Shown here: one piece after another, positions 266 to 62,135 of the stretch
How the letters are laid out: each line of letters starts with the position of its first letter
Numbering within the stretch: position 1 is the first letter of the stretch
Virus record (IMG/VR): IMGVR_UViG_3300020475_000546
Span: 1 to 64,000 of that record
Length of the DNA stretch: 64,000 nucleotides
From: an uncultured virus (IMG/VR IMGVR_UViG_3300020475_000546)
Lineage: Duplodnaviria; Heunggongvirae; Uroviricota; Caudoviricetes
Strand: one strand, 5' to 3'
Position numbers and translations under genes: made by a program
The notes under the pieces: generated by a model
Databases searched by the model: none
What the model saw: the letters and a program-made list of their open reading frames with translations, nothing else
Told to the model about the DNA's origin: nothing

Positions 266-607
266 TCAGCGTACCTCCAGTAGAACATCCACCTTTATTT
301 CATTGGTCGAGTCCTTTGTAATCGGCATGAATGTAGCACGGTAGGCAGGGGTGTCAAGTGCCGTGTCGCCATGCACTACCAGCTCTTTGATTGATTGGGA
401 TGAGGATTGCTGAGTATCAAATATAGCTGATACAGATAGGGTTCTATCATCTATCCTTCTTACATTGGGCGTAACTGTAATCTGAGGATTACCCGCCCCA
501 CCGTCTTTACTTGAAGAATCTCCACCCGTTGAACCCAATGTCATCCTTGTAACTAATGTGGAGAGATGGTCGGTAAGAGCTGACTTGAGAGTATCTAACA
601 CAGGCAT
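266..607 (-). CDS. small tail-tip/baseplate protein
   Basis: 113 aa, beta-strand-rich; start overlaps the upstream stop (TAATG); position after the tail-tip hub. Confidence 0.55.
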   Translation of the reverse strand: MPVLDTLKSALTDHLSTLVTRMTLGSTGGDSSSKDGGAGNPQITVTPNVRRIDDRTLSVSAIFDTQQSSSQSIKELVVHGDTALDTPAYRATFMPITKDSTNEIKVDVLLEVR

Positions 608-14921: not shown

Positions 14922-14922
14922 C

Positions 14923-27000: not shown

Positions 27001-30000
27001 CACCCTCCTTATGTATCTCAACATTCCCCGTACCATCAGTTTCTAATTCAATATGAGAATTAGCTGCTGCGACACTATCATACGCAATTGTGATTTTCGA
27101 GTGTCCTGTTGCCGCACTATTCCTCAATATCAAGTTATGAGAACCCGATGTGAGCGTTCCCGCTGCCGCACCATTGGCTATATTGAGCGTGTTAGTCGCA
27201 TCAGTATAGAAGAAAGTGGATGACCCTGTAATGTTCGTTCCGCTTCCAAACGCTACCTGAGTATTAGCGATGCTACCCCCAATCCCTCCCGATGCAGTAG
27301 TGTCAATGGAATCTTGTAGGTTATCAAGCGTCATGTATTTCCAAGATCCGGCAGACTCATCCCAAAGCAGAATCTTATCGTCAGTAGCATCCGTGCTTTC
27401 ATTAAGCTCAGATAGATTAGCAGGGTCATCTAAACCAAGTGTTGCCGAGTATGAACCAGATGTTGTGTTTGTTTCACTTGAAATTGTAATCGGAGATGTG
27501 ACGGTTAAATCAACACCCGTAATATCTCCTGTATTCGTAGTATAACCGTATGCTTCTATCTTATCTTGAATTGCAGCTGAGGTCATCAAGCTCGTATCGT
27601 CATCTGAGAAAGACTCAGAACTGAGTTGTAAGCTATTTGCAGCCAATTCAGACACAGTAAGGCCACTAACATTGAGAGTCGCAGACCCACTCGTAGCCCC
27701 GCCCGATAAGCCCGTTCCCGCTACAACAGCAGTTATGTCGCCTGTGTTGGTTGTGTATCCGTATGCCTCTATCTTATCTTGAATTGCGGCACTTGTCATT
27801 ACAGAAGTATCATTATCAGCAAAGGACTCAGAACTGAGTTGAATACTGTTAGCAGCGAACTCAGATACTGTTAGCCCACTAACATTGAGGGTTGCAGACC
27901 CACTCGTAGCTCCACCAGAAAGTCCTGTCCCTGCTACTACCGCAGTAATATCTCCTGTATTCGTAGTGTAACCGAAATCAGTAACAAATGTATGTATCTG
28001 ATCTGCTGTAGCTAACCCCGAACCCCCATCGGCTATCGCAGCAGTATCTAAAACCGCACCTGTGCCTAATCCTAAGTTTGTTCGAGCCGTACCTGCATTG
28101 GCTAGATCCGATAGATTACTTGATTTTGCGAGTTTAGTACCAATACTGGTAGTAATAGTGGATGAGAAGCTTGCATCGTCATTGATAGCGGCAGCTAATT
28201 CATTCAAGGTATCTAATGCACCGGGGGCTGAAGCGACTAATCCAGATACTTCTGCATCCACATACGCTTTGATTGATTGCTGAGAAGCTGCGTGTGTTGC
28301 GGAGTCTGAAGCCATGTCATCTTCATCTTTCAAATCAACATTAAGCGTAACACTACCACTTGACCCTCCACCCGATAATCCTGTTCCAGCGGTCACACCA
28401 GTAATATCACCCGCATTTGTAGTATAACCAAATGATTCTATTCTATCGTTAATTGCGGCAGAAGTCATTAGAGTTGTATCATTGTCTGCAAACGATTCTG
28501 ACGATGTAGTTAGAGATGCACCTGCTAATTCAGATACTGTTATCCCACTTACATTCAATGTTACAGAACCACTACTGCCTCCACCGGATAATCCTGTCCC
28601 GGCTGTAACTCCTGTAATATCTCCCGTAGTAGTAGAATATCCGTATGATTCAATCTTATCTGCAATTGCAGCGGAAGTCATTACAGAAGTGTCATTGTCT
28701 GCAAAAGATTCTGAGCTGAGCTGGATGCTATTAGCAGCAAACTCGGACACGGTTAATCCACTTACATTAAGCGTAGCCGATCCAGATGTTGCCCCGCCCG
28801 ATAGCCCTGTTCCAGCTACGACAGCAGTAATATCTCCCGCACCCGAACCAAAACCTTGAGCATCTATGTAATCATATACTGCATTACCTGTAACTAAACC
28901 TGCTTCTCCGTCTGCAACGCCCGATGAACCATCTGTAGCTACTGCCTTTACCGCAGCCGTGCCTAATCCCAAATTAGTCCGTGCCGTTCCAGCATTGACC
29001 AAATCAGAAAGGTTGCTTGATTTAGCAAGCTTAGTACCTATACTGGTTGTAACTGTTGTTGAGAATGACGCATCATCATTCAAAGCGGCTGCAAGCTCGT
29101 TTAGAGTATCTAATGCGTCTGGTGCAGAATCAACAATACTTGCCGTCTTATTGTCTATGTATGTCTTGATAGACTGTTGAGATGCTACTTTTGTAGCACT
29201 ATTGCTCGCCATGTCATCTTCATCTAACAAATCGGATGAGATAGCGTAGTTATTCGCACTTGTAGCTATACCGTCTAACTTAGTCTTGAGAGTATTAGTG
29301 AAGTTATTCTGCGTTAATCCCCCGTCACCAACGCTATATGTGGTGTTAGTATCTGTTGATGCGATTGTTACTGCACCTGCACTTTCAGTTATTGTTACAT
29401 TAGAACCCGCAGTAAAGGCAAGGGTTTCTGATGCCCCAAGAGTATTGCCCCCCGCAGTTACTGTTCTGACTGTGTTTGTATCTATCTTGTCTTGAAGGTC
29501 ATCTATTCTAATGTAATTCCAATCACCTTCGCTGTTATCCCAAATGTAAATCTGATCTGCATCATCAACAATTGTAGTGCTTCCCGCACCATCATCCGTC
29601 AATTGAGATACGGAAGCAGGGTCATTGAGAGAAAATACAGTACCATTCAACAAAAGCCCCGTTCCGGCAGTATAAGTAGTGTTTGTATTAGTGGTAAATG
29701 TTAGATTGTTCTGCATATAGGTCTGCAATACAGATGTATCCATTTTTTTAAGAACACCTGCATCGCTAATCACAAACTCATCGGTGCTTGCTAATCCGCT
29801 TGTAATTGCAGCTTGACCTGTTATATCCCCTACAACAAAGTTAGATGAGCCTGATGTAGCGAAGTTTTGAGCTGCGATATAATCAAACACAGCATTACCC
29901 GTAACCAAATCACCCTCACCATCGGCAACACCGCCCGAACCATCAGTAGCAACGCCCTTTACCGCAGCAGCCCCCAATCCTAAGTTTGTTCGAGCTGTTC

Positions 30001-32644
30001 CCGCATTAGCTAAGTCCGAAAGATTGCTTGACTTTGCTAATTTAGTACCGATGCTAGTGGTAATTGTTGTTGAGAAAGAAGCATCGTCATTCAATGCGGC
30101 TGCTAACTCATTTAATGTGTTCAATGCGGCAGGTGCAGTATCTACAATTCCAGATACCTGTGAATCAACATAAGCCTTGATTGATTGCTGACTTGCGGCA
30201 GCAGTAGCACTATTTGATGAAAAATCATCTTCATCATGTAGTGTTAATTGTGTATTCGTATCTGTTGATGCAATAGTTACTGCACCGCTACTTTCACTAA
30301 TCGTTATGTTAGATCCTGCCGTAAAAGCCAATGTTTCAGAAGAACCTAATGTATTTCCACCTGCCGTAATGGGTCTGAATGTATTAGTATCGCTAACAGA
30401 ATTAGTAATTGTTACTGCACCACCGCTTTCAGCGATAGTAATCCCCGTTCCGGCAGTAAAGGCCAATGTTTCTGATGCCCCTAATGTGTTGCCACCTGCG
30501 GTGACTGTCCTAAATGAGTTAGAATCGGTGCTATATCCATAAGACAATATCTTGTCTTGTATAGCGGCAGAAGTCATTAAGCTCGTATCATTATCAGCAA
30601 AAGATTCTGAGCTAAGTTGAATACTGTTGGCGGCCAATTCCGATACCGTCAATCCACTAACATTGAGAGTCACCGTGCCTGATGTTCCACCACCCGTCAA
30701 ACCAGTCCCTGCAACAACGCCTTCAATATCAGCTGCATTGGTGGCTATTGTGATTGTATCTCCGCTTGGGGTTATGGTGATGTTAGTACCTGCTTCAAGC
30801 GTAATATCGTCATTACCCGTTCCACTACCCCCTGCTGTAAGGCGGATAATTGCATCATCACCAGAATCAACGGCACTAATTGAGTAAGTAGTATCTGTAT
30901 CTGTTACGGATTCAGTAGCTGAAGCTATGCCTGTTACATGGCCGTCTGAATCAAGAGTAATGTCTTGAATGTAAGTCCTACCACTATTATCTACTGAGCT
31001 GGCTGCACTAATGTTGGGATGAGCTGAAGCTATGGTTATCTGATCGGGTGTTGTTGAAGTATCGGGCGTTATAGTGATGTTAGAACCCGCAACCAATTTC
31101 ACCGATACCGTTCCAGAACCACTACCACCTGCTATCAAATCAATCAAAGCATCACTTGAGCTATCAGATGCAGCGAGCGTGTAAGTCGTATCTGTATTAG
31201 CTGACGATGTATCTATTGAGTCTTGTAGATTATCAAGAGTCATGTATTTCCAAGCAGAAGCGGATTCATCCCAAAGCAATATCTTATCATCGGTAGCATC
31301 TGAAGCTTCATCAAGTTGAGATAATGTTACCGGATCTGCAAGTCCAACCGTATCGCCCGTCAAAGTGATTGGGGATGAAACAGCAAGATTCGTATCATCA
31401 CTAACATCAATCTGACCTAATGTGATTGCTTGGCTGCTTATTGATAGATAGTCATGACTAGATGTTATGAGAGTCACATTAGTTGAGTTATCAGTACCTG
31501 CTGCATCAACACCTAAGTTAGTCCGAGCTGTTCCCGCATTAGTAAGGTCAGAAAGATTACTTGATTTTGCTAACTTAGTCCCAACAAGATTGGTAATTGT
31601 AGTATGAAATGATGAGTCGTCATTGATTGCAGCGGCCAATTCATTTAGTGTATCTAACGCACCCGGAGCAGATGCAACCAAATCTGTAACTTTTGTATCA
31701 ACATACGCCTTTATTGATTGTTGAGATGAAGCATGGGTAGCTGAGTCAGACGACATATCATCTTCGTCTTTCAAATCAAGATTGAGAGTAACTGAACCCG
31801 ATGAGCCACCACCTGATAGGCCAGTCCCTGCGGTCACACCTGTAATATCGCCTACTTGTGTAGTGTAGCCATAGCTCAGAATCTTATCTTGTATGGCGGC
31901 AGAAGTCATCAATGAAGTATCATTGTCTGCAAACGACTCAGAACTAATCTGAAGGCTATTTGCTGCTATCTCAGATACTGTAATTCCACTTACATTCAAG
32001 GTAACTGCACCGCTTGAGCCACCACCCGTCAAACCTGTTCCGGCTGTGACGGAAGTAATATCGCCTAACTCTTGAGTAGTCCAAACTCCATCAATAGCTA
32101 CAACAGCGTGATTGTTTGTAGGTGTAAGATTAGCAAACTCGGTCAGTTGAGGATCATAACTTTGCCATACATCTGCACCAACAATGTCATTCGTTGAAGG
32201 ATTGATGAATGATACATCACTACCAGCTGATAGGCTAAAGGTGACTACCTCAAATTGCATTGTGTATCTAAACAGCTTCTTTGCCCTGTCCGATAAGTCG
32301 GTTCGAGTCTTGAAGATAACACGATCAATGTTTTTGTTATCTCCCTTCCTAAACCCATGAAGTATTCTTCTAACCTCATTTCTTATTTCAGACAAACGCT
32401 TTCTGCTCTTGACTGTTCTAATGTCTATTGTGAGGTTGATATGCTCATTGACGAAATCATACAAAAGCTCTGGTTGTGATTCATTGTGAGCTGTTTCAAA
32501 GATTCTGATTACATCTTTATCTTGTAGCCTTACTCTCTTACCATCGCCCTTGTCTATGTTAGCAATATCTTGTATAGATGGCTTAGGTGCTTTAGACCAA
32601 TTAGCGTCAAGAATATTGACGAGAATTGCGATTGCGTCAGTCAC
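24077..32644 (-). CDS. 2855-aa repetitive fibre protein fused to an N-terminal tail-terminator/neck-like domain
   Basis: About 140-aa globular N-terminus (LTIDIRT..RLSEIRNEVRRIL..FRYTMQFEV); then 5 x AP.ALdTLNELAAA.NDD and about 13 x GDIT.V.AGTGL.GG repeats. Confidence 0.75.
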   Translation of the reverse strand: MTDAIAILVNILDANWSKAPKPSIQDIANIDKGDGKRVRLQDKDVIRIFETAHNESQPELLYDFVNEHINLTIDIRTVKSRKRLSEIRNEVRRILHGFRKGDNKNIDRVIFKTRTDLSDRAKKLFRYTMQFEVVTFSLSAGSDVSFINPSTNDIVGADVWQSYDPQLTEFANLTPTNNHAVVAIDGVWTTQELGDITSVTAGTGLTGGGSSGAVTLNVSGITVSEIAANSLQISSESFADNDTSLMTSAAIQDKILSYGYTTQVGDITGVTAGTGLSGGGSSGSVTLNLDLKDEDDMSSDSATHASSQQSIKAYVDTKVTDLVASAPGALDTLNELAAAINDDSSFHTTITNLVGTKLAKSSNLSDLTNAGTARTNLGVDAAGTDNSTNVTLITSSHDYLSISSQAITLGQIDVSDDTNLAVSSPITLTGDTVGLADPVTLSQLDEASDATDDKILLWDESASAWKYMTLDNLQDSIDTSSANTDTTYTLAASDSSSDALIDLIAGGSGSGTVSVKLVAGSNITITPDTSTTPDQITIASAHPNISAASSVDNSGRTYIQDITLDSDGHVTGIASATESVTDTDTTYSISAVDSGDDAIIRLTAGGSGTGNDDITLEAGTNITITPSGDTITIATNAADIEGVVAGTGLTGGGTSGTVTLNVSGLTVSELAANSIQLSSESFADNDTSLMTSAAIQDKILSYGYSTDSNSFRTVTAGGNTLGASETLAFTAGTGITIAESGGAVTITNSVSDTNTFRPITAGGNTLGSSETLAFTAGSNITISESSGAVTIASTDTNTQLTLHDEDDFSSNSATAAASQQSIKAYVDSQVSGIVDTAPAALNTLNELAAALNDDASFSTTITTSIGTKLAKSSNLSDLANAGTARTNLGLGAAAVKGVATDGSGGVADGEGDLVTGNAVFDYIAAQNFATSGSSNFVVGDITGQAAITSGLASTDEFVISDAGVLKKMDTSVLQTYMQNNLTFTTNTNTTYTAGTGLLLNGTVFSLNDPASVSQLTDDGAGSTTIVDDADQIYIWDNSEGDWNYIRIDDLQDKIDTNTVRTVTAGGNTLGASETLAFTAGSNVTITESAGAVTIASTDTNTTYSVGDGGLTQNNFTNTLKTKLDGIATSANNYAISSDLLDEDDMASNSATKVASQQSIKTYIDNKTASIVDSAPDALDTLNELAAALNDDASFSTTVTTSIGTKLAKSSNLSDLVNAGTARTNLGLGTAAVKAVATDGSSGVADGEAGLVTGNAVYDYIDAQGFGSGAGDITAVVAGTGLSGGATSGSATLNVSGLTVSEFAANSIQLSSESFADNDTSVMTSAAIADKIESYGYSTTTGDITGVTAGTGLSGGGSSGSVTLNVSGITVSELAGASLTTSSESFADNDTTLMTSAAINDRIESFGYTTNAGDITGVTAGTGLSGGGSSGSVTLNVDLKDEDDMASDSATHAASQQSIKAYVDAEVSGLVASAPGALDTLNELAAAINDDASFSSTITTSIGTKLAKSSNLSDLANAGTARTNLGLGTGAVLDTAAIADGGSGLATADQIHTFVTDFGYTTNTGDITAVVAGTGLSGGATSGSATLNVSGLTVSEFAANSIQLSSESFADNDTSVMTSAAIQDKIEAYGYTTNTGDITAVVAGTGLSGGATSGSATLNVSGLTVSELAANSLQLSSESFSDDDTSLMTSAAIQDKIEAYGYTTNTGDITGVDLTVTSPITISSETNTTSGSYSATLGLDDPANLSELNESTDATDDKILLWDESAGSWKYMTLDNLQDSIDTTASGGIGGSIANTQVAFGSGTNITGSSTFFYTDATNTLNIANGAAAGTLTSGSHNLILRNSAATGHSKITIAYDSVAAANSHIELETDGTGNVEIHKEGAVVFKLPNTIGSSGQILKVPSSGTILEWGDSGTTYSAGTNISLSGTTFNVDDAFLVNNANDTTSGVITAGGFTTAGSVTIGGHAFDDIDIGSEFVDTDDHIMSSGAIKEKIESYGYTTNTGDITSVVAGTNLSGGATSGAATLNVSADPSFSTVTVETEIIHDGDTNTKIGFTPDVITLGTGGSTKLTANNSGIKIGSGATVTTIATSFTDNDTSLMTSAAIADKIESYGYGTGGGDITAVVAGTGLSGGATSGSATLNVSGLTVSELAAGSIQLSSESFSDDDTSLMTSAAIADKIEAYGYTTNTGDITGVTAGTGLSGGGSSGGVTLNIDLKDEDDMTSNSATHAASQQSIKTYVDTSVSNLVASAPAALDTLNELAAAINDDASFSSTITTSIGTKLAKSSNLSDLANAGTARTNLGLGTGAVLDTATIADGGSGLATADQIHTFVTDFGYTTNTGDITAVVAGTGLSGGATSGSATLNVSGLTVSEFAANSIQLSSESFANNDTSIMTSAAIEDKILSYSYTTNTGDITGVTAGTGLSGGGSSGGVTLNVSGLTVSEFAANSIQLSSESFSNNDTSIMTSAAIEDKILAYGYTTNTGDITGVDLTVTSPITISSETNTGSGSYSATLGLDDPANLSELNESTDATDDKILLWDESADAWKYMTLDNLQDAIDTNTTYSTMGSGNSYAAGLTPAGNATHGGYFLRRDGTWVVPPDTDTNTTYSAMGSGNSYAAGLVIAGSSTHNDTFLRKDGTWATPTDTNTNTNQLTTFNIGVDTNSNSTTIAHGETLTFTGGTGIETETTADGTVTITSTVTDTNTTYSAGTGLDLSSTTFSVDVSDFMSNGSNNRVLTATGADAMNAEANMTFDGSALTVAGTIQGYKTVIKAVSSNTSLVDADSGKTIYWTGGTLTLPANAEAGQQFVIINNTNGAATPSLGSGNAIATNWTAHAAMADETARTYISPVADKWIYIG

Positions 32645-51875: not shown

Positions 51876-53712
51876 GGAATGCCACCTTCACTATTTGCAC
51901 CTGTTCATGCTGAACGCCTATTGTCTTAGCGATGTTTCTCCAATCGCCCTTTGAGAATAATATGCTGATTACATCAGAAGTAGGTCTTTGAATGTGCGCC
52001 CCCATCATGGCTATGTCTGTTGGAGAGTTTATATCAAAAACAGGCACATCATAACTATCCTCTAAAACAGCCTTAGCAATCTCCATTTGCACATTTTCAA
52101 GATATTGCTCTATTTGATTTGCATCGTCAGAACGCAAGATAGTCCTGTTTCCGGCTATACGGCCAAGAATTGTAGCTATCTGATCCATAATACCGCCCCC
52201 GCCTATACCCTGTGCATCTGCACCCGTCAATGGTATATTTGTGTTTATACCGCTTTGGGGATTAAGAGTAGGTATTGGTGATGAAACTAATGGAGGTGGT
52301 GTGTTTGCTTCTGGTCGAGCTATTGGGGCTACAGGGGGTTCGGGGGCTTGGGGTGGCGGTGCGGTATGTACTGTAATCGGTTCGGGTCGTTGTAGTACCT
52401 CAGTCGGTTGTTGTACCGCAGCTTGTGAGGGGTCTAATGCCTCAGCTACATTTGGCGGTGGTGCATCGTCATACCATGTAGGTACTGCTGATGATTGAGT
52501 TACATGATGATTGAGTAGAGCTTCTAAGAATCTATTCTTGATACTACCACTTGTAGGCATACCGTTCTGCTTTCTACTTACATCTTCTACGAATTGTGAA
52601 GCTTCCATCTCATCCATGAAATGATGGTCGGTCAAATAGCCTACTACCTTTGGATTAGCCATTCCTGTATCTTTGTCATAGAATGAATGTCTTTGATTAG
52701 ATACCATATTTTTCAACCATGTGGTTTCTCTATGATCGGGGTGTATAACGGCTGAAGGGTTAGTCTGCGGAGCTTGAGTTACTTCGGGGTCAGTACCCTG
52801 CCTCATCTGCATTTCGTGTTCTATCTCCGCATCGGAGAACGGTTGCTCGCCATCATCTGGGCGTATAACACGGCCATAGGTTGATTCTTGGGCATGGTGA
52901 TGATGCCCAGTCATGTGGAATGCCCTGTTGTCTTGCATCCACATTTCCTTTGCGTGGTTCATGGCTGAAGATCTATCCAACCCCTGAGCAAGAGCTTGTT
53001 GAAAATGCTCACGAACTGCGGTATTCATCTGTAAAGCCTGATTATTGTCATTAAACGAAATCAGATTACGATTGCTAAGATCCTTATGCCCTCGGATATA
53101 CCTATCGTTTCTCTTTGTTTCTTCTCTCCCTGAACTTTGTAGTGCTTCTTCATAGGGTCTTGCCCAACCTTCTTCCCTTTTCGTATTAGAACTCGTTATA
53201 TGAGTAATCAATTGATTATTAGAATTAAAGGGGTTTGCGTTTTTTGTTCCCGGTAGGAGTACCTGCTTAGGTTCGGCAGAAGCACCATGTACCCAAGGCA
53301 CATTAACTTGAACAGAACCAGTCCTATCCGATTGGAACGCCATAGGCATAGGTGGTATTCCCCTACCTGCATTGATTTGATTTTGTTGTTGGATTGCAGT
53401 ATTGATGATAGGTGCGCCCGCTTGTATAGCTAACTTTGCGGCATTCTCAAACTGAGGGTCAGTAGGGCCACTATGCAATACCTCATACACTTCAGATGTA
53501 ATCAAGGCATTACGAATAGCCATGTCTATTGCGTCTATCTCAACCCCCGATAACAAACCTTCTCGAACATTATGATGGTCTAATTGCATTAAATCTTGAA
53601 CCGCAGCTCCCTGACCATTGACAAAGGACTCTATCACTTGGTCGAGGTCATACACTCCCCAACCCTTTTGGATAGTGAAATAATTAGGGTCAAACATCCA
53701 TGAACGGCTCAT
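51868..53712 (-). CDS. 614-aa hypothetical protein with a C-terminal HTH-like segment
   Basis: Long ORF; WRNIAKTIGVQHEQV. Confidence 0.6.
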   Translation of the reverse strand: MSRSWMFDPNYFTIQKGWGVYDLDQVIESFVNGQGAAVQDLMQLDHHNVREGLLSGVEIDAIDMAIRNALITSEVYEVLHSGPTDPQFENAAKLAIQAGAPIINTAIQQQNQINAGRGIPPMPMAFQSDRTGSVQVNVPWVHGASAEPKQVLLPGTKNANPFNSNNQLITHITSSNTKREEGWARPYEEALQSSGREETKRNDRYIRGHKDLSNRNLISFNDNNQALQMNTAVREHFQQALAQGLDRSSAMNHAKEMWMQDNRAFHMTGHHHHAQESTYGRVIRPDDGEQPFSDAEIEHEMQMRQGTDPEVTQAPQTNPSAVIHPDHRETTWLKNMVSNQRHSFYDKDTGMANPKVVGYLTDHHFMDEMEASQFVEDVSRKQNGMPTSGSIKNRFLEALLNHHVTQSSAVPTWYDDAPPPNVAEALDPSQAAVQQPTEVLQRPEPITVHTAPPPQAPEPPVAPIARPEANTPPPLVSSPIPTLNPQSGINTNIPLTGADAQGIGGGGIMDQIATILGRIAGNRTILRSDDANQIEQYLENVQMEIAKAVLEDSYDVPVFDINSPTDIAMMGAHIQRPTSDVISILFSKGDWRNIAKTIGVQHEQVQIVKVAFHE

Positions 53713-54884
53713 TTCTTGCCCACTACTCCCGCTACTAAGAGGGGAGTAGCATCATGATAGAACATCCAAGGCTTCTCATCGTTTTCTGTTCCGCCTTGAG
53801 GTGCGCTTGCAGTATCTTGACTAGGGGTAGCACCTGCCTTATCTTTTGCTTCGTTTTCGGGTGTCGCCTTCGTCAATTTTTCTAATTTCCTCATCAACGC
53901 CTCAATTTTCTTTTTGAGTCCGATAATTTCTGTTCTGTTTAAGCTACCTAAGCCACCTTTTGATTTTAGCATCTTTAACGGATCTTCCGAACCAAGAGGG
54001 TCGCCAAGCTGTTTGTCCGTGAGCTTATCGGGTTTTCTTGATTCCTCTCTCATAGGCATAGGCATCCTTGTTCCCATATTAGGAGAAGGTGGTAGCTTTG
54101 TTCCCCTGCCCTGTTTCATATCGGGCATTGGACTACCTGCACCCATTCGCCTCTTTGATTGCTGTTGGTTATATTGACCCGGATTGCGGAACTTTAGAGG
54201 CATCTGAGCTTCAGACCCCCTGCTTCTTGGCGGTGGTGCAGCCCCTCTCTTAGGCATCGGCATCTTCTTTTTTGCTTTCTTTTTGGCCTTGCCTTTCTTA
54301 GCAGGTCGCTTGTTAGACCTCTTTTCACGCTTGTTTGATTTCTTCTTAGGCTTTTCATCATCCTCGTCATCTTCATACTTGCGTGACTTGTACTTGTCTT
54401 TCGCAGCTTTGAGTAAATCTTCTGACTTGCCGAAGGCATTAGTAGTGCCTCGCCCATAATTCACATACGGTGTATCGCTTCTAACCGTGCCTCTATGTGC
54501 GCCAGCCGAGAAGGATAATCCTCTTGCACCCAAATCTACCCCCAATCTTGACTCAAGAAGTTTGTTTTCTTCTTCAAATCTCGGAGAACGCTCGATTACA
54601 TCAGACATAACTTCTGGTTTGATTTGTATGTGTTGTAGTCCGGGCATCAATTCCCTCAAAGCTCTTTCACGCCTCTTATCGGGGTCAGCTTGATCCCTGC
54701 TTTCTGTATCCTCAGTCGTGTTGCGAGAGTTATGAGCTAAATCATCATCATCTTCATTGGGGTTGATTTGCAGATCTAAGACCTGTCTTGGATTGAAACC
54801 ACCTGTCATCTCTTGGGTTCGTGGTCGCCATATATTCCCCATATCACGGGGATTAGCTGCTATTTTGACGATTTCATCAGTCAC
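53709..54884 (-). CDS. Lys/Pro-rich low-complexity protein
   Basis: Basic tract KKGKAKKKAKKK; overlapping junctions with neighbours. Confidence 0.6.
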   Translation of the reverse strand: MTDEIVKIAANPRDMGNIWRPRTQEMTGGFNPRQVLDLQINPNEDDDDLAHNSRNTTEDTESRDQADPDKRRERALRELMPGLQHIQIKPEVMSDVIERSPRFEEENKLLESRLGVDLGARGLSFSAGAHRGTVRSDTPYVNYGRGTTNAFGKSEDLLKAAKDKYKSRKYEDDEDDEKPKKKSNKREKRSNKRPAKKGKAKKKAKKKMPMPKRGAAPPPRSRGSEAQMPLKFRNPGQYNQQQSKRRMGAGSPMPDMKQGRGTKLPPSPNMGTRMPMPMREESRKPDKLTDKQLGDPLGSEDPLKMLKSKGGLGSLNRTEIIGLKKKIEALMRKLEKLTKATPENEAKDKAGATPSQDTASAPQGGTENDEKPWMFYHDATPLLVAGVVGKK

Positions 54885-55381
54885 TTATGCAACCCCCTTC
54901 TTGCTATGTCATCCTCTCTTCTGATTGCCTCTCTTGCTCTATCTCTTTCAAGTTGCCTAATACCTTTGAATGCCGTTGCGACACGCATGGGTAGGTTGAG
55001 ATACCAATGAGATAAAGATGGAACTCTCGCATAGGATTTAGCTAGTGGGAGATATGCGTTCTTGAGCTTGTTCATCTGCTTCATAACATCAACAAAGTCC
55101 ATTTGTTCGGTGCTTTGTTCGTCTAAGTATGAATAAATCGCAAATCTTGTGTTTATGTTATGACTGTATATTTCATGCGATACTTCTTCCGCCATATCGG
55201 TCAAACCAAAGGGTATCATTGATTCTCCCCATTCCTTGATTACATAGTCCATAGCGTCAAGCAATTCGAATAGACCATCGTATGTAGTAGGCAAATCGCC
55301 ATGCAATACTGATTCGTAGTTGCTATACGGCCCTTCCTTGAGCTGTAATTCCTCCGGCCTTCTTCCGATATGGTAGCTCAT
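54881..55381 (-). CDS. helical hypothetical protein
   Basis: 166 aa; ATGA overlap with the upstream gene. Confidence 0.6.
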   Translation of the reverse strand: MSYHIGRRPEELQLKEGPYSNYESVLHGDLPTTYDGLFELLDAMDYVIKEWGESMIPFGLTDMAEEVSHEIYSHNINTRFAIYSYLDEQSTEQMDFVDVMKQMNKLKNAYLPLAKSYARVPSLSHWYLNLPMRVATAFKGIRQLERDRAREAIRREDDIARRGLHK

Positions 55382-56088
55382 TCATCCATCACCCCCGCTT
55401 CTGCTAACATCTGCCTAATCGTTCTCCACTCGTCTGGTGCCTTCTCCGAGAAATACTCTTGCATTATGGTGATTACAGACACACTTTCAACCTTATCCAC
55501 TTCCTTGAGCTTATCCATCCATTTGGCTAACTCTCCCAATGTTTCACGGACTTCACGGTGCATCTTGATGGCTAAATCCAAATCCTTGCTTGATACCATA
55601 TCTGCATTCTCAACCATCTGTTCCTCTAATCGGTCTAAGTGCATAGATAGCAAAGTATCCATTCTATTCATGTTAGATTCAACACGATTCAAGCTATCGT
55701 GCGTAGTTTGAATTGCTTTCGGTATAACTTCGATATTTGCCTGTCTTTGGATTAGAGGCTTGGTATGTTTCTCCATGTGATGAGTAATGGTCAATTCGGG
55801 AATATCTAATTCTTCCGAAAAATCAATTATTGTAGCTCTATGGTCAAGAATGGCCGATTCTATTTCAGACCTTTCTGGATGAGTACAGACTGGGCAATCC
55901 ACATTTGACTCATTGAAGAAAGCACCTGCATGGTTTCTCATGTGCCTGTGAGCTAAACCATTAGCCCAACCTTGATCTCTATCTACATCATTAGTGTCAA
56001 GCTTCCCAGCTCTTATGTCTAATTCAATAGAATCTCTTTCTGGATGTTGGCAGAAGGGACAATTCTTGCGTATCCGCCTACCACCCAT
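55378..56088 (-). CDS. putative terminase small subunit (tandem CxxC-HP / HTH / HxxxH repeats plus coiled coil)
   Basis: Two CPxCxHPERxxIE...HxxxH repeats followed by an oligomerisation helix; first gene of the operon leading to TerL. Confidence 0.6.
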   Translation of the reverse strand: MGGRRIRKNCPFCQHPERDSIELDIRAGKLDTNDVDRDQGWANGLAHRHMRNHAGAFFNESNVDCPVCTHPERSEIESAILDHRATIIDFSEELDIPELTITHHMEKHTKPLIQRQANIEVIPKAIQTTHDSLNRVESNMNRMDTLLSMHLDRLEEQMVENADMVSSKDLDLAIKMHREVRETLGELAKWMDKLKEVDKVESVSVITIMQEYFSEKAPDEWRTIRQMLAEAGVMDE

Positions 56089-56122: not shown

Positions 56123-56524
56123 TTACGCTTCATGCTTGCGTAGATGTATGCCACAATAACCCTTTTGTGATTTGTCCGATATACGCCTTTGACACCTATT
56201 TCCAGATGATGTTACTGCTATGCACCTTTCTTCATCAGTTGGGTTTCGATAGCACTCAACGCACACCCCCGTTTGATACTTTGATTTCTTTTTCAATGGC
56301 TTCCCACACCGAGAACATTCTTTCTTGCGAGGCAATACTTGATCGGCTAAAGCGTGTAAATCATCAATCCCTAACTTGCCGTCATTATTCCTATCAGCTA
56401 CAGCCCTTATGTCTGCAAAATTGACCTTTCCATCCCTGTTAAAGTCAAGTGGTGAATACCCCTTGTTTTGAGAAGGCTGTTGATAGAAGGCCGCTGGTGT
56501 AGGTGGGCGGTACTGCCCCGCCAT
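56123..56524 (-). CDS. EF-hand pair plus zinc-finger protein
   Basis: DFNRDGKVNFAD and DRNNDGKLGIDD loops; CSRC..CVEC; RCIAVTSSGNRC..YCGIH. Confidence 0.7.
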   Translation of the reverse strand: MAGQYRPPTPAAFYQQPSQNKGYSPLDFNRDGKVNFADIRAVADRNNDGKLGIDDLHALADQVLPRKKECSRCGKPLKKKSKYQTGVCVECYRNPTDEERCIAVTSSGNRCQRRISDKSQKGYCGIHLRKHEA

Positions 56525-56541
56525 CGGCAAAGATGGGGGGC

Positions 56542-56796
56542 TTACCGAAAAGCCGCATATTGTCTAACTGCAAGGAAGAATGTAAAGAATACTCCAAATA
56601 TAGCAACCATAGAGAAAGTCGGATCCATAGACGGGCCTTTCCAAAGCATTACAGATGTAATTAGAAGCATGAAAGATATGATAAAAATCATCGTTGCACT
56701 TTCAACCAACATTTTGTTCGGTGCAAACATTTCCATTGTCGTATCAGCCATTGTCGTTCCATAAGGTGTTCTTTGTTCCCTATCTTCTTCCTTCAT
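56542..56796 (-). CDS. small two-TM membrane protein
   Basis: Two hydrophobic stretches of about 20 aa. Confidence 0.7.
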   Translation of the reverse strand: MKEEDREQRTPYGTTMADTTMEMFAPNKMLVESATMIFIISFMLLITSVMLWKGPSMDPTFSMVAIFGVFFTFFLAVRQYAAFR

Positions 56797-56957
56797 TATT
56801 CTTCTTCCCCCTTTGTTGAGCCGCCAAGACCCGAAAACATACTACTAACGAAAACCTTTCTTCGTCTATTCTTTTTCAAACGATACTTACCAGAAAGAAA
56901 ATGCTTCTTGCGAGCTTTGAACTTACTCCAGTATCTTGCTCTAACGCCTTCCTTCAT
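56796..56957 (-). CDS. 53-aa highly basic peptide (not in the ORF track)
   Basis: MKEGVRARYWSKFKARKKHFLSGKYRLKKNRRRKVF...; GAGGGG RBS; TAATG coupling to the next gene. Confidence 0.6.
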   Translation of the reverse strand: MKEGVRARYWSKFKARKKHFLSGKYRLKKNRRRKVFVSSMFSGLGGSTKGEEE

Positions 56958-56967
56958 TTGAATCCCC

Positions 56968-57606
56968 TCATATTAGAGCTGCTGCCCCTGCACCCATAGC
57001 ACCCATACCGCCTTGGTTCTGCATTTGCTGACCTAACAGGCCACCGACTAAGCTACCAAAGAATCCCGGTTGAGGGTTCATCATAGGGTTATGTGCTTGT
57101 AGTAGCATTTGTGTTTGTTGTTGATTCATCTGAAGCTGTTGTTGAGCTGATTGCCTCAAAGTCTGCAAAGTCAAAGCAAGGTTTTCAGGAGATAGTGTTG
57201 CTATGTTAGCGGGGAGCGTAGTTGTGTCTAAACTGAGCTTACCATCTTCACCTGCTGCAAGTTGAACATTAGAAAAGAAGTCCTTTAGCGATAGTGTAAC
57301 AATTTCTGCTACTAAATCCATCATCATGCTAAATTGATTAGCTACAATGAATTGATTTAGAGGGTCGTAATACTGCAACAATCTTGATGTGGCGATAACT
57401 GGGTCATTAGCCATCTGTTGCATCATGGGATTTTGCCCCATCTGTTGCATCATCATCGGATCCATCATTCCACCCGCAGCACCCATAGCACCCATTCCAC
57501 CTTGCATTCCATATCCTCCCATACCTGTCATTCCCATGCTATTTGATGCACCGAATTGTTGTGTTGGGGTTTCATTATTCCTGTTAAAAAACCAGCCCAT
57601 TTTCAT
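56968..57606 (-). CDS. Met/Gly/Gln-rich low-complexity protein with glycine-zipper-like C-terminus
   Basis: GMGG and MMQQ repeats; GFFGSLVGGLLG. Confidence 0.7.
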   Translation of the reverse strand: MKMGWFFNRNNETPTQQFGASNSMGMTGMGGYGMQGGMGAMGAAGGMMDPMMMQQMGQNPMMQQMANDPVIATSRLLQYYDPLNQFIVANQFSMMMDLVAEIVTLSLKDFFSNVQLAAGEDGKLSLDTTTLPANIATLSPENLALTLQTLRQSAQQQLQMNQQQTQMLLQAHNPMMNPQPGFFGSLVGGLLGQQMQNQGGMGAMGAGAAALI

Positions 57607-57615
57607 TTCTCCTTT

Positions 57616-58626
57616 CTAATTTGTTTGTTGCCCTACTCCCGTTGATTGAGGACTTTGATTAACCCCTGCCTGTGCAGACGGTATTGTATTTTGGGTCATA
57701 TTGGCGTTTTGAAGGCCAATCGCTTGCCTTTGGGACATAGCGTCACTCATCTGCAAAGCTCTAAGGTCAAATGTAACCGACACTAAATCGGCCACACCTG
57801 TTATTGGATTGGGATATTGAGTTAGGACAATGCCCTTCTTGTGTTTGGTGTCTTGCTGAATCATCTTGAAGAATGGTTCGTATTTTAACAAGGATTCTGT
57901 TGTTGAACGGTTTTGGGCAGAAGAACCCCCCATCAAAGCACTCATACCGGGAACTTTGAGAAACTTAGTACCTTTGCTGACTGGGCGTAAGCCATCGGCA
58001 GACATTTCATCCTCTTGCACTAGCTTTCTCAATGTATGATAAATATGCAGATGAGCCGGACATAGTGTGCTATTCATTTCATCACCATGATCGCCTCTTG
58101 TTCGAGCATGAGGGATTATTGAGTTGCCTGTTTCATCGTCAAACCAATACAAATCTGCTAAACTGACCTTACCGGGCAAATCATAATCAATAATTTGGGC
58201 GTAATCGTTATCCCCTTCAAGAAAACGCCTCACATCAACACCACAGCAAGCACACTCAAATGTTCCATTATATCTGTAAATACGCCAAAGACCCAACAAA
58301 TAGCTCGGTGGCCTCAACGCTTTTCGCAATTTCTTGATGTTTTTCTTTCGTGCCTTTTTGGGATTATCGGGGTTTTGCACCAATTGAACCTCAACCGTAG
58401 GTACTACTTCCTCAGCTCCACCGTAGCCACCAGTAGCTCCGGCACTTGCGATTTCAGCTCTTTGTTGGGCTTTCAACATAGGAAATGCAAGCCCTGTGTT
58501 GGCCGCTACCTGTTTTAATTGTTCATCGGTTAAACCTGCTAATTTTGCGTTGGGATTGCCCGCAATCCAGTTGGGCAAGATGTTGCCTGTCCAGCTCATG
58601 TTAGCTATCCCAACCTTGACAACCAA
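57616..58626 (-). CDS. hypothetical Zn-binding protein
   Basis: CACC and LCPAH; Gln-rich tail. Confidence 0.65.
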   Translation of the reverse strand: MVVKVGIANMSWTGNILPNWIAGNPNAKLAGLTDEQLKQVAANTGLAFPMLKAQQRAEIASAGATGGYGGAEEVVPTVEVQLVQNPDNPKKARKKNIKKLRKALRPPSYLLGLWRIYRYNGTFECACCGVDVRRFLEGDNDYAQIIDYDLPGKVSLADLYWFDDETGNSIIPHARTRGDHGDEMNSTLCPAHLHIYHTLRKLVQEDEMSADGLRPVSKGTKFLKVPGMSALMGGSSAQNRSTTESLLKYEPFFKMIQQDTKHKKGIVLTQYPNPITGVADLVSVTFDLRALQMSDAMSQRQAIGLQNANMTQNTIPSAQAGVNQSPQSTGVGQQTN

Positions 58627-58642
58627 TTAAGCATTCCGTGTT

Positions 58643-59371
58643 TTACAGTAGTTCTACAATAGATATTAACACCTTTTCCACATTTACGCCATGTTGTGCC
58701 GATATTGCATCTATATCGGCTCTAACTCCGGCCTTTCTAAGCCGTCTTAACTCGTTTCTAAAGGGGGCAACGATGGGATGTTCCCTTTGCAGGTTATTAT
58801 CCCAAAGGTATTGAGCTTGAGGCGACCACCATAAATCCATTTTATTCACTAAGAATACTACGACTTTCGGCATATAGTTGCTACGAGAAGTTTTTTTCGC
58901 CTTTCTGGATATGGCCGTGCTAACATCTTTTCGAGTTATGTTGTCTATTAAATATCTAAATGAAGCCAAAGAATCCTTAGCAAAAGACGGACTTGTTAAT
59001 ACTCTATGATCCACCATGAATATGACTATCTCGCACTTACGGCCAAACATATCTTCTATCCAGAGATTCCTAAATTGAGCTTGCCCTGCAATATCCGAAT
59101 TAGAAATTGGGATCCTATCTTTTTTGTATTTGATTAACTTTCTATGAGGTTTAGGGGCTTTGGCGTGACCATTGACCATAGGGTGGGATGTTCGCATCTC
59201 AATTGGTATCGGGTCTATGTCGCCCGGAACGGTCAGATATTGGTCTAATGTAGTCTTACCAGTCATACTTGGGCCGTATATTCCAATACGATATGGCCTA
59301 AGAATACGGTAAAACTTCTGCAAGGCGTGAACCGAGCTAATTAGCAGATGCCCTGCGATGACCGCACTCAT
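58643..59371 (-). CDS. Ras-superfamily small GTPase, Arf/Sar-like
   Basis: G1 GPSMTGKT, G3 DIAGQ(AQFRNLW), IVIFMVD, G4 NKMD, G5 SAQ; N-terminal amphipathic segment. Confidence 0.9.
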   Translation of the reverse strand: MSAVIAGHLLISSVHALQKFYRILRPYRIGIYGPSMTGKTTLDQYLTVPGDIDPIPIEMRTSHPMVNGHAKAPKPHRKLIKYKKDRIPISNSDIAGQAQFRNLWIEDMFGRKCEIVIFMVDHRVLTSPSFAKDSLASFRYLIDNITRKDVSTAISRKAKKTSRSNYMPKVVVFLVNKMDLWWSPQAQYLWDNNLQREHPIVAPFRNELRRLRKAGVRADIDAISAQHGVNVEKVLISIVELL

Positions 59372-59384
59372 ACGGCCAGCCCAC

Positions 59385-59606
59385 TCATATTTGGTCTTTC
59401 AAATACTCCCAAAGCCCGACTGGGGATGTTCCTAATTCGTCTAATATAATTAAGATGGCGAAAGTTCCGCCTATGCCTATTGCTAATGCTACAAATGTGC
59501 GAACCCAACCCGCCATTCGTTCCATTTTTCTTTCGTAGGAGTTTTCTGCTAATATCTGAGCCATTTCTGCTGCTTGTCTTTCTTGTCTTGTTGAAAACGG
59601 CCACAT
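59385..59606 (-). CDS. small membrane protein
   Basis: One TM (FVALAIGIGGTFAILIIL); MWPF N-terminus; RBS present. Confidence 0.7.
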   Translation of the reverse strand: MWPFSTRQERQAAEMAQILAENSYERKMERMAGWVRTFVALAIGIGGTFAILIILDELGTSPVGLWEYLKDQI

Positions 59607-59622
59607 TTAGTCCCCACCTACT

Positions 59623-60114
59623 TCAGTTGTTGGATCGCCCATCATCCTCATCTGAAGCAGGTGTGTTGGGAAGTCCAAATACATCTCTTCCTTGAGATTG
59701 TTGCTGCATAACAGCCATTTGCCCCTGTAGCTCTTGGTAATATTGTTGTTTTTGCATACGCCTGTTGGTCATTTGCATTTGATTTCTAAACCATTTGTCA
59801 TAACTCGCTTCCTTTGAAAACTCAGCTCTCATAGCCATACTATCTCTTATTCCGCCTACTTGGAACAGAACCATAGATGTGCATAAAAAGCCAAATGCGA
59901 TTAGTCCGTATTGTAATCCCATTTCGGCTGGTGTTGCATTCGGTAGATACCAATCTTTGTGAGATATGCCTACTGCAACGCCTGTAAGAAGCGATTGCCA
60001 TAGAAGCATAGCTATCAGATTAACATCAACCCTATTCCCTGTTTGTTCAGCTGGTGGTTGCCACATTGGTATTTGTGATGATCCATTCATTTTCTTATCC
60101 TTCCTTTTGCTCAT
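59623..60114 (-). CDS. two-TM membrane protein with Gln-rich coiled-coil tail
   Basis: Two hydrophobic segments; QMQM/QQY tail. Confidence 0.7.
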   Translation of the reverse strand: MSKRKDKKMNGSSQIPMWQPPAEQTGNRVDVNLIAMLLWQSLLTGVAVGISHKDWYLPNATPAEMGLQYGLIAFGFLCTSMVLFQVGGIRDSMAMRAEFSKEASYDKWFRNQMQMTNRRMQKQQYYQELQGQMAVMQQQSQGRDVFGLPNTPASDEDDGRSNN

Positions 60115-60238
60115 CTATGAGCCTAAAGTAGTGCTGCAACGCATGATTCACATACGATGATTTGGATTCTCGACCCCTTTCTTTCTCCATTCTGCGGTAT
60201 AATTCTTCCCACATCACTACCGATACATGACGGCTCAT
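60095..60238 (-). CDS. ribbon-helix-helix (CopG-like) transcription regulator
   Basis: MSRHVSVVMWEELYRRME..RG..SKSSYVNHAL fits strand-helix-helix; probable start 60238. Confidence 0.7.
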   Translation of the reverse strand: MSRHVSVVMWEELYRRMEKERGRESKSSYVNHALQHYFRLIDEQKEG

Positions 60239-60296: not shown

Positions 60297-62063
60297 TCAT
60301 ATTTTACGCATGAATTGAGTAATATCCAAACCAGAATCAACGACTCTCGGTTTTAGGTCATCACCATAGGCGACTCTAAGATTTTGTCGTGAGTTAAGAT
60401 TTTGAGGACGGTTTTTGGTACTGCCTTGATGAACATTGAAACTTATCGGTTCAGTTCCATGCCAACAATCATCACAATTGTAATCTTCACAATTACCTCC
60501 TAACATAGAAGCGGGGCATGACTTAACTGAAGGATCTAAGGAAGATGCCGAGCTTGCCTTTATTCGAGGATGCTCTAATAATTCTTCATAACCTGCTGAG
60601 AAATCCTCTCCCAAGAGAGGCAAACCATACGCTTCATTTATTTCATTATCAACAGCTTGTCCTATCCATGGTAATGACAACATGACATTCATATTCTTAG
60701 GTATAGCATCCCATCCTCTTCTATCTAAGAATGATTTGACCCCTGCCGATTCTCTTGTAGGCAACCAATGTTCTAATTGAGGTGTTGCTGAAGCTATATC
60801 GTTCAACATAGCGAAATGTTGCGCCCCATAATCACGATCTGTTTCTTCTTCACCTTCTTGTAAATCCCCACTATCCATGTGCCTAAACTTGTTAGTGCCG
60901 TAATAAAACGATTCAGCTGGCGCACGGTGAGCAAAGGCAGAAGCGTAGCTCAAAGGGTCATCATCCGTTAGTCCGTGAAAGTTCCTCCATAGTTGAGTCT
61001 GTTTTGGGTTCAATGGGTATCTGCCTTGCTTTGCATAACACATTTTACCGTCTGAGCCACCGCAGGTTGAACCAGCTACCATACCTAATCGGCCACCTAC
61101 ATGACACAGATGCACAGGCAAACCGAAGGAAGCTCCGGGCATTTTATCCGGTGCGCCAAAACCTCCACTCGGATTCATACTAACTATTTTATTGGCTTCG
61201 CTCACGGGTCTTTTACCCGAAGTTCGCCCCATTGTGTCTGAAAACTTAGGGATTTTGACTTGTTCATCAACATCCCATCTAACCTTTCTATCGTCTTTGT
61301 ATCTATTCATTATGTCCTTGTTGTTTTCTAACCAATCAAATATCTGGCGACCATCACCCGGATATTTGCCCCCAAAGAACCGATCCCACCAAAACATATC
61401 ATCGGGGTCGCCAAGAGCTTTCAGTAGCAAAGAGCGAATGGTCATCGGTTCGCCAGTATGAATATCTTGGAATTGTTGGGTGAAAGGCAGGTGTTTTGAA
61501 TCGCCTCTTGGCTCGAAAGGTGTGCCGTCTTTTTTCCAACCGCCCGCATGAATGTCGCCTCTTCTGCCCGCATCAACGGTTTGCTCTTGCGATCTGTATG
61601 TTATTTCACTGGATAACGCTTCAGCAAAGTCCTCACTAAGATTCGCAGCTTCGTTTGCAGGGTTAAACAGCGACACAGCTAATTCCATGCGTTCATCTTC
61701 AGAAAGATTGGGGTTATGCTCAAACCTTGAAAACTGCGTTCTAAACTCATCTAACAAATCACGGTATCTGTTTATCTCGGAATGAGGTAGCAAACCCAAA
61801 GGTCGAGGATAAGGCAGGGGGTTAGAGAAGTATCTTTCATCATACGCCTCTCTCTCTTCTTCTGACATTTCTTCCCAATCACGGGGATTGCTACCTTTGC
61901 CGTGAGCTTCTTCCCAATACTCGTTTGGATGCTTTTCTGCATAGCCTTCTGGGACTAATCCAGTAGGATCATATTCAGCTTGAAAATCAAACCTATCGGG
62001 CTTATCATCGGATTCCTTAGTGATAGACCAACCCACTTCAAAAGGGCTAACGCTACCACTCAT
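60297..62063 (-). CDS. Gp88-like Cys-rich phage protein with an acidic N-terminal extension
   Basis: KMPGASFGLP..C..G..STC..CYAKQGRY, FRHMDSGDL, HWLPTRE, C-terminal CPA..C..C..CW; N-terminus FEVGWSITK. Confidence 0.7.
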   Translation of the reverse strand: MSGSVSPFEVGWSITKESDDKPDRFDFQAEYDPTGLVPEGYAEKHPNEYWEEAHGKGSNPRDWEEMSEEEREAYDERYFSNPLPYPRPLGLLPHSEINRYRDLLDEFRTQFSRFEHNPNLSEDERMELAVSLFNPANEAANLSEDFAEALSSEITYRSQEQTVDAGRRGDIHAGGWKKDGTPFEPRGDSKHLPFTQQFQDIHTGEPMTIRSLLLKALGDPDDMFWWDRFFGGKYPGDGRQIFDWLENNKDIMNRYKDDRKVRWDVDEQVKIPKFSDTMGRTSGKRPVSEANKIVSMNPSGGFGAPDKMPGASFGLPVHLCHVGGRLGMVAGSTCGGSDGKMCYAKQGRYPLNPKQTQLWRNFHGLTDDDPLSYASAFAHRAPAESFYYGTNKFRHMDSGDLQEGEEETDRDYGAQHFAMLNDIASATPQLEHWLPTRESAGVKSFLDRRGWDAIPKNMNVMLSLPWIGQAVDNEINEAYGLPLLGEDFSAGYEELLEHPRIKASSASSLDPSVKSCPASMLGGNCEDYNCDDCWHGTEPISFNVHQGSTKNRPQNLNSRQNLRVAYGDDLKPRVVDSGLDITQFMRKI

Positions 62064-62135
62064 GCTAACAATGTGTATTACCATTCATGAAAAGATTACC
62101 GCACTATTCATAATGAATTGTAGTATTAGTAATAT

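Follow-up and report, generated by a model that had tools for sequence, protein, structure and literature searches.

Why would a tailed virus keep a small GTPase gene in the midst of genes for small membrane proteins? The question is raised by positions 56123 to 60238 (minus strand) in the first 64,000 nucleotides, here called the window, of the uncultured virus contig IMGVR_UViG_3300020475_000546 (74 kb; 74,349 bases). The virus is a tailed one, because the large terminase (TerL), the portal, the prohead protease and an HK97-type capsid protein are all encoded downstream of this block (PHROG scan). A sequence-only reading of the window had taken nine tightly coupled genes of the block for a self-contained, GTP- and Ca-regulated membrane-remodelling module. 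To judge from its profile and fold matches, which give it its Arf affinity, the encoded protein is a real, very divergent, Arf-like small GTPase. We give an even chance to the reading that the cassette around it is a GTP-switched membrane module of late infection, whose most likely purpose is the release of the progeny.

Affinity and range of the viral GTPase

The GTPase (242 amino acids) is encoded at 58643..59371 on the minus strand. All four motifs announced by the sequence-only reading were located in this open reading frame (ORF), in the order G1 (G33-T41), G3 (D93-Q97), G4 (N176-D179) and G5 (S224-Q226). Among 72 distinct orthologues, the G1, G3 and G4 residues were invariant, as were R60-T61 and W104, and R60-T61 is a candidate for holding the switch I threonine. 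Residue 97, the last of G3, varies in an otherwise invariant nucleotide pocket, which is unusual for a switch of the Ras superfamily.

The fold was predicted with AlphaFold (AF2). The model has a predicted local distance difference test score (pLDDT) of 91.0 and a predicted template modelling score (pTM) of 0.86, and it places a helix of residues 2-24 ahead of a Ras-like core. A profile of 26 family members was searched against the PDB. The best match was the Asgard protein GerdArfR1 (8oun_A, 2.6e-9), and Arl8A was matched at 2.4e-5; further matches were Arl5, Rab33B, Arf1, KRas and G-alpha, and the RecA rows in the list were matches of the P-loop only. Pfam Arf was the family most often matched across the 26 members (16 of them, the best at E 2e-4). 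When the AF2 model was compared with the PDB by Foldseek, at least 500 matches were obtained at E<=0.001, and the rows shown were small GTPases of all kinds. After re-ranking with VIA-align, the top 22 rows were all of the Arf family (Z 17.0-18.2), including GerdArfR1 (8oum_A, Z 17.4) and HodArfR1. The best of them was Arl1 (4dcn_A) with a Z of 18.2 and a root-mean-square deviation of 2.4 over 163 aligned residues. The Arf rows were followed by a Loki RagA-like protein at 16.6 and by Rabs at 15.6 or less. The Arf-like character proposed earlier was thus borne out by the PDB profile search, the AF2 fold and the VIA ranking.

The Arf family (Arf1, Arf6, Arl1, Arl3, Arl6, Arl8 and the Asgard ArfR), which gave the best profile and fold matches, has a Ras-like G domain after an N-terminal helix in common with the viral protein, and also a DxxGQxxxRxLW-type switch II with an invariant Trp. 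The Asgard structures are GerdArfR1 (PDB 8OUN/8OUM) and HodArfR1 (8OUK), described in bioRxiv 10.1101/2024.02.28.582541. According to the same preprint, the interswitch toggle of the Arf family couples GTP binding to the release of the N-terminal helix, and ArfR is almost exclusive to Asgard archaea. In contrast, the viral GTPase comes from a tailed virus, is only about 20% identical to these proteins and scores below the Pfam Arf cut-off. Its sequence is extended after switch I by about 15 inserted residues, and a second, basic insert precedes G4. Unlike that of Arf, its helix is uncharged and hydrophobic, and the catalytic Gln is kept in half of the family.

The N-terminal segment itself was conserved. 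G7 was found in 68 of the 72 orthologues, and 70 of them had no charged residue at 2-17 (mean Kyte-Doolittle hydropathy 0.96). This helix looks closer to an SR-beta-type anchor than to the Arf1-type helix.

How widely the family occurs was followed by several searches. An exhaustive HMMER search of 1.84 billion representative proteins yielded 63 matches at E<=0.001, many of them short pieces; because none exceeded 280 amino acids, they look like one small family. A word-indexed search yielded 110 clusters from contigs of up to about 117 kb; every one is metagenomic and bears at most the label 'hypothetical'. Taken together, the GTPase family seems to be viral only. The sequence-only reading had called small GTPases unusual in tailed viruses, and our searches agree: the protein had no PHROG match, a tblastn search of 50,697 phage records gave no match, and the 50 best folds in BFVD were all from giant viruses. 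NCBIfam gave no match either, and every Pfam match of the single sequence stayed under the gathering score.

Conservation of the cassette in related viruses

If the genes around the GTPase belong together, they should stay with it in related viruses, and a lack of such conservation was put forward with the earlier proposal as a result that would refute it. IMG/VR was scanned twice. The scan with the protein yielded 16 loci and the one with a profile 191 matching stretches, which places the cassette on at least 191 viral contigs; the 80 best stretches were kept. Genes were counted with iterated hidden Markov models (HMMs) on same-strand ORFs. In all 80 loci the order was a protein with two transmembrane (TM) segments, a 1-TM protein, the GTPase, a Cys/His protein (p336), a Met/Gly/Gln-rich protein, a second 2-TM protein and a double-zinc protein, at GTPase identities of 36-97%. 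The neighbours were found to be conserved with the GTPase, and the proposal withstood this check. The core trio of GTPase, p336 and Met/Gly/Gln protein was present in 80 of 80 loci, the first 2-TM protein (163 amino acids) in 78, the second (84 amino acids) in 79 and the double-zinc protein (55378-56088) in 79, and all misses were at contig ends.

The other genes were detected less often. The HMM recognised the 1-TM protein in 50 of the 80 loci. In the 30 most distant loci (L074-L103; 36-39% GTPase identity), its slot held an ORF of 80-85 amino acids with a YER..GW motif and a hydrophobic stretch; these ORFs comprised 23 distinct sequences, 13 of them above the TM threshold. The first gene of the block, called ribbon-helix-helix (RHH)-like, and the EF-hand/Zn gene were each found in 48 of 80 loci, none of them in the group with 36-39% identity.

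The cassette was also approached from the packaging side. For 23 loci anchored on TerL, 10 kb of upstream DNA was available. In 19 of these the DNA reached the GTPase, in 4 downstream cassette genes were visible at the edge, and none of the 23 was without the cassette. When compared with a 92%-identical relative, the ratio of nonsynonymous to synonymous substitution (dN/dS) was 0.02-0.11 for all 12 genes tested, from the RHH-like gene to p614. This indicates that the 12 are real coding genes, and all of them are under strong purifying selection. The term self-contained, however, could not be kept, since beyond the nine genes the order is also conserved for the double-zinc protein, p166, p391 and p614, and no boundary was seen.

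Two observations concern the variation of the locus. In L043, L095 and L100, the start of p336 is shifted downstream by about 0.25 to 1 kb (1614, 1773 and 993 nt after the GTPase start versus usually about 680-800), which suggests that an element was inserted between the two genes. In IMGVR_UViG_3300006793_000018 (L012/L046, L235), the terminase is 79% identical to that of the window and the GTPase only 56%. By these identities, the cassette appears to evolve faster than the packaging enzyme while its order stays.

Neighbouring genes and virus lineage

The main ORFs of the window are on the minus strand, and the block shares its strand with the genes for terminase, portal, protease and capsid, which lie downstream of it. 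All nine ORFs listed by the sequence-only reading were recovered at their positions. They are separated by spacers of 9-16 nt or overlap (20 nt between the RHH-like and the 2-TM gene, 1 nt between the basic ORF and the 2-TM gene). The dense packing continues downstream with overlaps of 4, 4, 4 and 8 nt, and for this reason the operon-like look is not special to the block. No cassette partner scored above a curated cut-off of Pfam, PHROG or NCBIfam.

The block begins with the RHH-like protein of 47 amino acids (60095..60238, ATG at 60238), in which a strand-helix-helix pattern is seen by eye only. The claim of an RHH regulator failed to find a model that supports it: no Pfam family was matched at E<=1, and a profile of 25 orthologues gave a best PDB match at E 1.2 to an unrelated chain, although short proteins are hard to detect in this way. 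The dN/dS of this gene is 0.02.

Three neighbours of the GTPase are integral membrane proteins by hydropathy, which also confirmed the proposed numbers of TM segments. The 163-residue protein (59623..60114) has TM segments at 33-51 and 66-84 and a Gln-rich C-terminal tail, with 16% Q in its last 79 residues. The 1-TM protein of 73 residues (59385..59606) has its TM segment at 37-55 and a conserved N-terminal cytosolic stretch, MWPFS...YERKMER..GW. The 84-residue protein (56542..56796) has TM segments at 33-51 and 59-77. Neither the 163-residue protein nor the Met/Gly/Gln-rich protein had a match in Pfam or PHROG. The latter (56968..57606, 212 amino acids) has low-complexity ends and a conserved centre, and the composition attributed to it was found as described, with 12.7% M, 12.3% G and 13.2% Q, together 38%.

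The protein p336 (57616..58626, 336 amino acids) belongs to no known family or fold. Its residues C125, G129, C189, P190, H192, H194 and H197 are invariant, and p336 is probably a zinc-binding protein. The AF2 model has a pLDDT of 76.3, and the 10-residue blocks of 81-210 average 84-96. Against the PDB, the profile gave 0 matches, Foldseek none at E<=0.001, and the wide VIA search reached Z 5.0 at best, in a match confined to the N-terminal helices. NCBIfam had no match, and the best protein atlas entry (0.80) brought no useful neighbour. An assignment as ArfGAP, HNH or another known zinc fold was rejected, the best Pfam row being AtuA_ferredoxin (E 0.2, 12.4 bits versus 27), and an HNH-like look noted by eye ('DHGD...N..LCPAH') found no support. 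The metagenomic range of the p336 family matches that of the GTPase family. When a complex of the GTPase, with GTP and Mg, and residues 24-310 of p336 was predicted, both runs gave 0.00, a value uninformative about binding.

Between the Met/Gly/Gln gene and the 84-residue 2-TM gene, an insert of about 170 nt holds a Lys/Arg-rich basic ORF of 53 amino acids (56796..56957). It is found in two contigs only, the window and one near relative with 97% GTPase identity (1 of 16 and 1 of 80 loci, one contig fetched twice), and is lineage-specific and a doubtful member of the block. The DNA is about 89% identical over 123 nt and the substitutions, read by eye in the alignment, are mostly silent in this frame; it may be a young small gene.

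The last of the nine genes encodes the EF-hand/Zn protein (56123..56530, 135 amino acids), which has two Ca-type loops, an inner CxxC...CxxC pattern and a C-terminal Cys/His knuckle. The loops DFNRDGKVNFAD and DRNNDGKLGIDD follow the pattern DxNxDGxhxxxD and are 5 residues apart. The EF-hand label given earlier stands as far as two loops are visible in the sequence, but Pfam EF-hand_1 scored only 21.3 bits, below its cut-off of 25.4. Among the 48 orthologues, 6 had two Ca-type loops, 25 had one and 17 none, whereas the C...C...C..H pattern was present in 48 of 48. Ca-type loops are thus found in 31 of the 48 orthologues, and in 32 of 80 loci no orthologue was detected at all, which leaves the proposed regulation by Ca unsupported.

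Downstream of the nine genes, the double-zinc protein (55378..56088, 236 amino acids) is conserved with the block and to an equal degree. It has two CPxCxHPER...HxxxH units, written more fully as CPxCxHPER...(H)xHMxxH, followed by a long helical C-terminal half. Its atlas neighbours are viral clusters only, in some of which a minority of the members carry helix-turn-helix (HTH) families (HTH_20 28%, GerE 11%), which is a lead only; the protein may bind DNA or be a small terminase. The protein p391 (53709-54884, minus strand, 391 amino acids), also downstream and in conserved order, contains a long stretch of low complexity that is rich in Lys and Pro (K 12.3%, R 8.4%, P 8.4%) and matched no family. 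The large terminase lies further downstream (PHROG 38, 8.6e-75). Past the capsid gene come a tape-measure-like protein and giant tail-fibre-like proteins. Three giant ORFs were seen on the minus strand, of 2607 (607-8430), 2174 (8424-14948) and 2855 amino acids (24077-32644). The first had a virion-structural-protein match and the last had repeated tail-fibre-type PHROG matches (phrog_1197, 1.8e-65, five stretches). Upstream of the cassette, a GP88-family protein is encoded at 60297-62084 (minus strand; PF17338, 5.4e-11). In relatives its matches range from 89 to 809 amino acids and its position shifts; some duplicates occur, and in the complete relative G001 the gene is found on the opposite strand. 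The GP88-family gene is a variable edge of the conserved block. No tRNA genes were found in the window.

The contig lacks a replication region, and the lineage was studied with G001, a relative of 108 kb rated 100% complete, whose GTPase is 81% and TerL 85% identical to those of the window. G001 encodes a thermosome subunit (NCBIfam 527.8 versus a cut-off of 450 bits) and a Hef/XPF-type nuclease. The best cellular matches of the thermosome were Poseidoniales and Tara 'Euryarchaeota UBA' metagenome-assembled genomes (MAGs). By this protein the hosts are probably Poseidoniales (Marine Group II), which are abundant archaea of the ocean, an assignment weakened by the thermosome being encoded in the relative, not in the contig itself, and by a small margin of 45-46% identity versus 36-44% for other archaea. 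The best named match of TerL was to Bacteroides phages at 27%, which is uninformative on the host. In the putative host order, represented by incomplete MAGs, the viral GTPase profile was found in 0 of 5 and 0 of 301 genomes, PF00025 (Pfam Arf) in 0 of 151 and the profile of ArvA, an Arf-like GTPase of other archaea, in 0 of 151. PF00025 is unspecific, firing in 11 to 12 of 14 control genomes, and ArvA was found in 70 of 81 Halobacteriota.

Magroviruses have genomes of about 100 kb with the structural genes of tailed viruses and a replisome of archaeal type; as described in PMC5434244, their groups A and D carry thermosomes and all 26 magroviruses encode a family B polymerase. Of these features, a structural block is present in the window and a thermosome in G001. 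For the family B DNA polymerase PF00136, no match was obtained in any of three close or intermediate relatives, G001 among them, and all four of the complete but more distant genomes with the cassette (G388-G391) had one. By these matches the cassette appears to span polymerase-bearing genomes of the magrovirus type and a sub-lineage without a PF00136 match, to which the window belongs. The lineage is probably one of tailed viruses of marine archaea with genomes of about 100 kb. A 1238-residue ORF of G001 (L020:6019-9735) was tried as a hidden polymerase and had no PDB, Pfam or NCBIfam match; it might be a replacement replicase.

Known systems and the role of the cassette

Could the cassette belong to a system that is already known? 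ArvABC (OapABC) of Haloferax volcanii has in common with it a small GTPase with an N-terminal hydrophobic helix beside a zinc-binding protein, and the archaeal setting. As described in PMC10927574, ArvA is an Arf-like GTPase with an N-terminal helix that drives vesicle formation in Haloferax, its partners are ArvB (DUF2073) and the Zn-ribbon protein ArvC (DUF2072), and it is known from Euryarchaeota and DPANN. The order arvABC was found in 26 of 30 reference loci, ArvB and ArvC each in 28. The P-loop region of ArvA is strikingly like that of the viral GTPase (RIGIYGPxxxGKTTL), and hhalign gave 95% probability and an E of 3e-8 for the pair, over 43-74 columns only. In the same search space, the viral profile scored 19-29 bits with ArvA versus 40 with GerdArfR1, and G3 is DTPG in ArvA, whereas it is DxxGQ in the viral GTPase. 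The viral set has three TM proteins, whereas the arv operon shows none in the description of the paper and in one arv locus. As candidates for ArvB or ArvC, the 10 viral families were rejected, with probabilities that all stayed at or below 13%, the best being the EF-hand/Zn protein with ArvC at 13%. We conclude that the viral cassette works, at most, like ArvABC and is not a member of that system.

Virus-encoded small GTPases of the same fold are found in giant viruses (Nucleocytoviricota) as Rab, Ran and Ras. These are viruses of eukaryotes, and by their BFVD names the GTPases seem to have been copied recently from the Rab, Ran and Ras of the host. The GTPase of the cassette, in contrast, comes from a tailed archaeal virus, has no close cellular relative and lies in a fixed cassette with membrane proteins. 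Phage holin lysis cassettes resemble the block in having several small membrane proteins on the late-gene strand upstream of the packaging genes. They differ from it in that no endolysin or lysis-category PHROG was found among 50 window proteins scanned, which agrees with the earlier remark that no holin or endolysin is recognisable in the window. To our knowledge, a GTPase is part of no known phage lysis cassette.

How might such a module act? The uncharged N-terminal helix would hold the GTPase at the cytoplasmic face of the host membrane, where the small membrane proteins encoded just upstream might serve as a docking site, and the protein would cycle between its GTP and GDP states. In the active state it would organise the three membrane proteins, the Cys/His protein and the Met/Gly/Gln protein into an assembly. 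This assembly would alter the membrane late in infection, the likeliest aim being to release the progeny. Membrane binding, partner binding, timing and the role in egress are what we infer here, and the viral factory and vesiculation named in the sequence-only reading are likewise inferences; the action of ArvA in Haloferax offers a precedent. A bolder form of the proposal takes the cassette for the release machine so far missing from tailed archaeal viruses, a device timed by GTP. An Arf-type switch of the virus's own, anchored by its helix, would act on three membrane proteins together with two orphan partners so that the membrane is breached or buds, in a host (Marine Group II) in which no GTPase of the Arf or ArvA type was found. 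We consider this bolder form unlikely, though not far-fetched; if true, membrane remodelling by small GTPases would be old among viruses and not limited to eukaryotes and Asgard archaea.

Several results weigh against a membrane switch of the Arf type. With the single GTPase sequence, Pfam Arf scored 16.5 bits versus a gathering cut-off of 22.3, with Roc and Ras next. The N-terminal helix is hydrophobic and not clearly amphipathic, with a hydrophobic moment of 0.10 over residues 1-18 that rises to 0.51 only over 8-25; it is also under the TM threshold and could equally pack on a partner. Residue 97, the catalytic-type Gln of DxxGQ, is kept in only half of the 72 orthologues (36), the others having E (17), D (16) or H (3), which casts doubt on the hydrolysis mechanism. 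None of the partners resembles a coat protein, a GTPase-activating protein, a guanine nucleotide exchange factor, ArvB, ArvC, a holin or a known fold. Finally, with the conserved order continuing into the downstream genes, the limits of a functional unit are not defined.

This continuation bears on other roles as well. The cassette lies directly upstream of the packaging genes in an unbroken conserved order toward terminase and portal, the adjoining double-zinc protein has HTH leads in related atlas clusters, and the Met/Gly/Gln protein is of low complexity. All this would fit a cassette that builds or anchors a membrane-associated site of assembly or packaging, a viral factory, where the GTPase recruits capsid-assembly or packaging proteins to a patch of TM proteins and the Met/Gly/Gln protein serves as a scaffold or condensate. 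However, no link was seen between the cassette proteins and terminase, portal or capsid, and we know of no tailed virus that needs a membrane site for head assembly; we regard a factory as improbable. Somewhat harder still to believe is a function that is not needed for release at all, namely host takeover or superinfection exclusion by altering the envelope or its transport, for example through a block of entry or a change in vesicle release. Small membrane proteins are typical of phage exclusion systems, and with neither ArvA nor an Arf-type GTPase found in the searched genomes of the host order (0 of 151 each) the virus may add a function that the host lacks. Yet exclusion genes are usually variable accessory genes, whereas the cassette was present in 80 of 80 loci and in 23 of 23 TerL-anchored loci and is under strong purifying selection.

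The slimmest chance is given to a soluble switch which, jointly with the RHH-like and the double-zinc protein, would regulate for example late gene expression or the packaging of DNA. Its helix would be buried in a partner, and the membrane proteins would be unrelated neighbours kept by the operon structure. A helix that is neither clearly amphipathic nor a clear TM segment is compatible with this, as are the DNA-binding-type neighbours that flank the block and an order that is conserved across the whole region, not in the cassette alone. But the best sequence and fold matches are to the Arf family, which acts on membranes, and at 36% GTPase identity it is the three membrane proteins that are kept around the GTPase, while the RHH-like and EF-hand/Zn proteins are undetected there.

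The release of progeny by a GTP-switched membrane module concerns a step for which a 2024 review (PMC10791045) calls the players of the egress system in tailed archaeal viruses completely uncharacterised. Our literature search found no paper describing the cassette. The word 'GTPase' is absent from the main text of PMC5434244 and PMC11706807, the supplementary gene tables of which could list such an annotation. Arf GTPases have been described in a mobile-element-like region of an Asgard genome (PMC11529989). As a fixed, strongly selected block around an Arf-like switch, the cassette is a concrete and clonable candidate for the exit step. The known range of Arf-like GTPases is widened by it, and a virus-only branch bears on how such switches spread.

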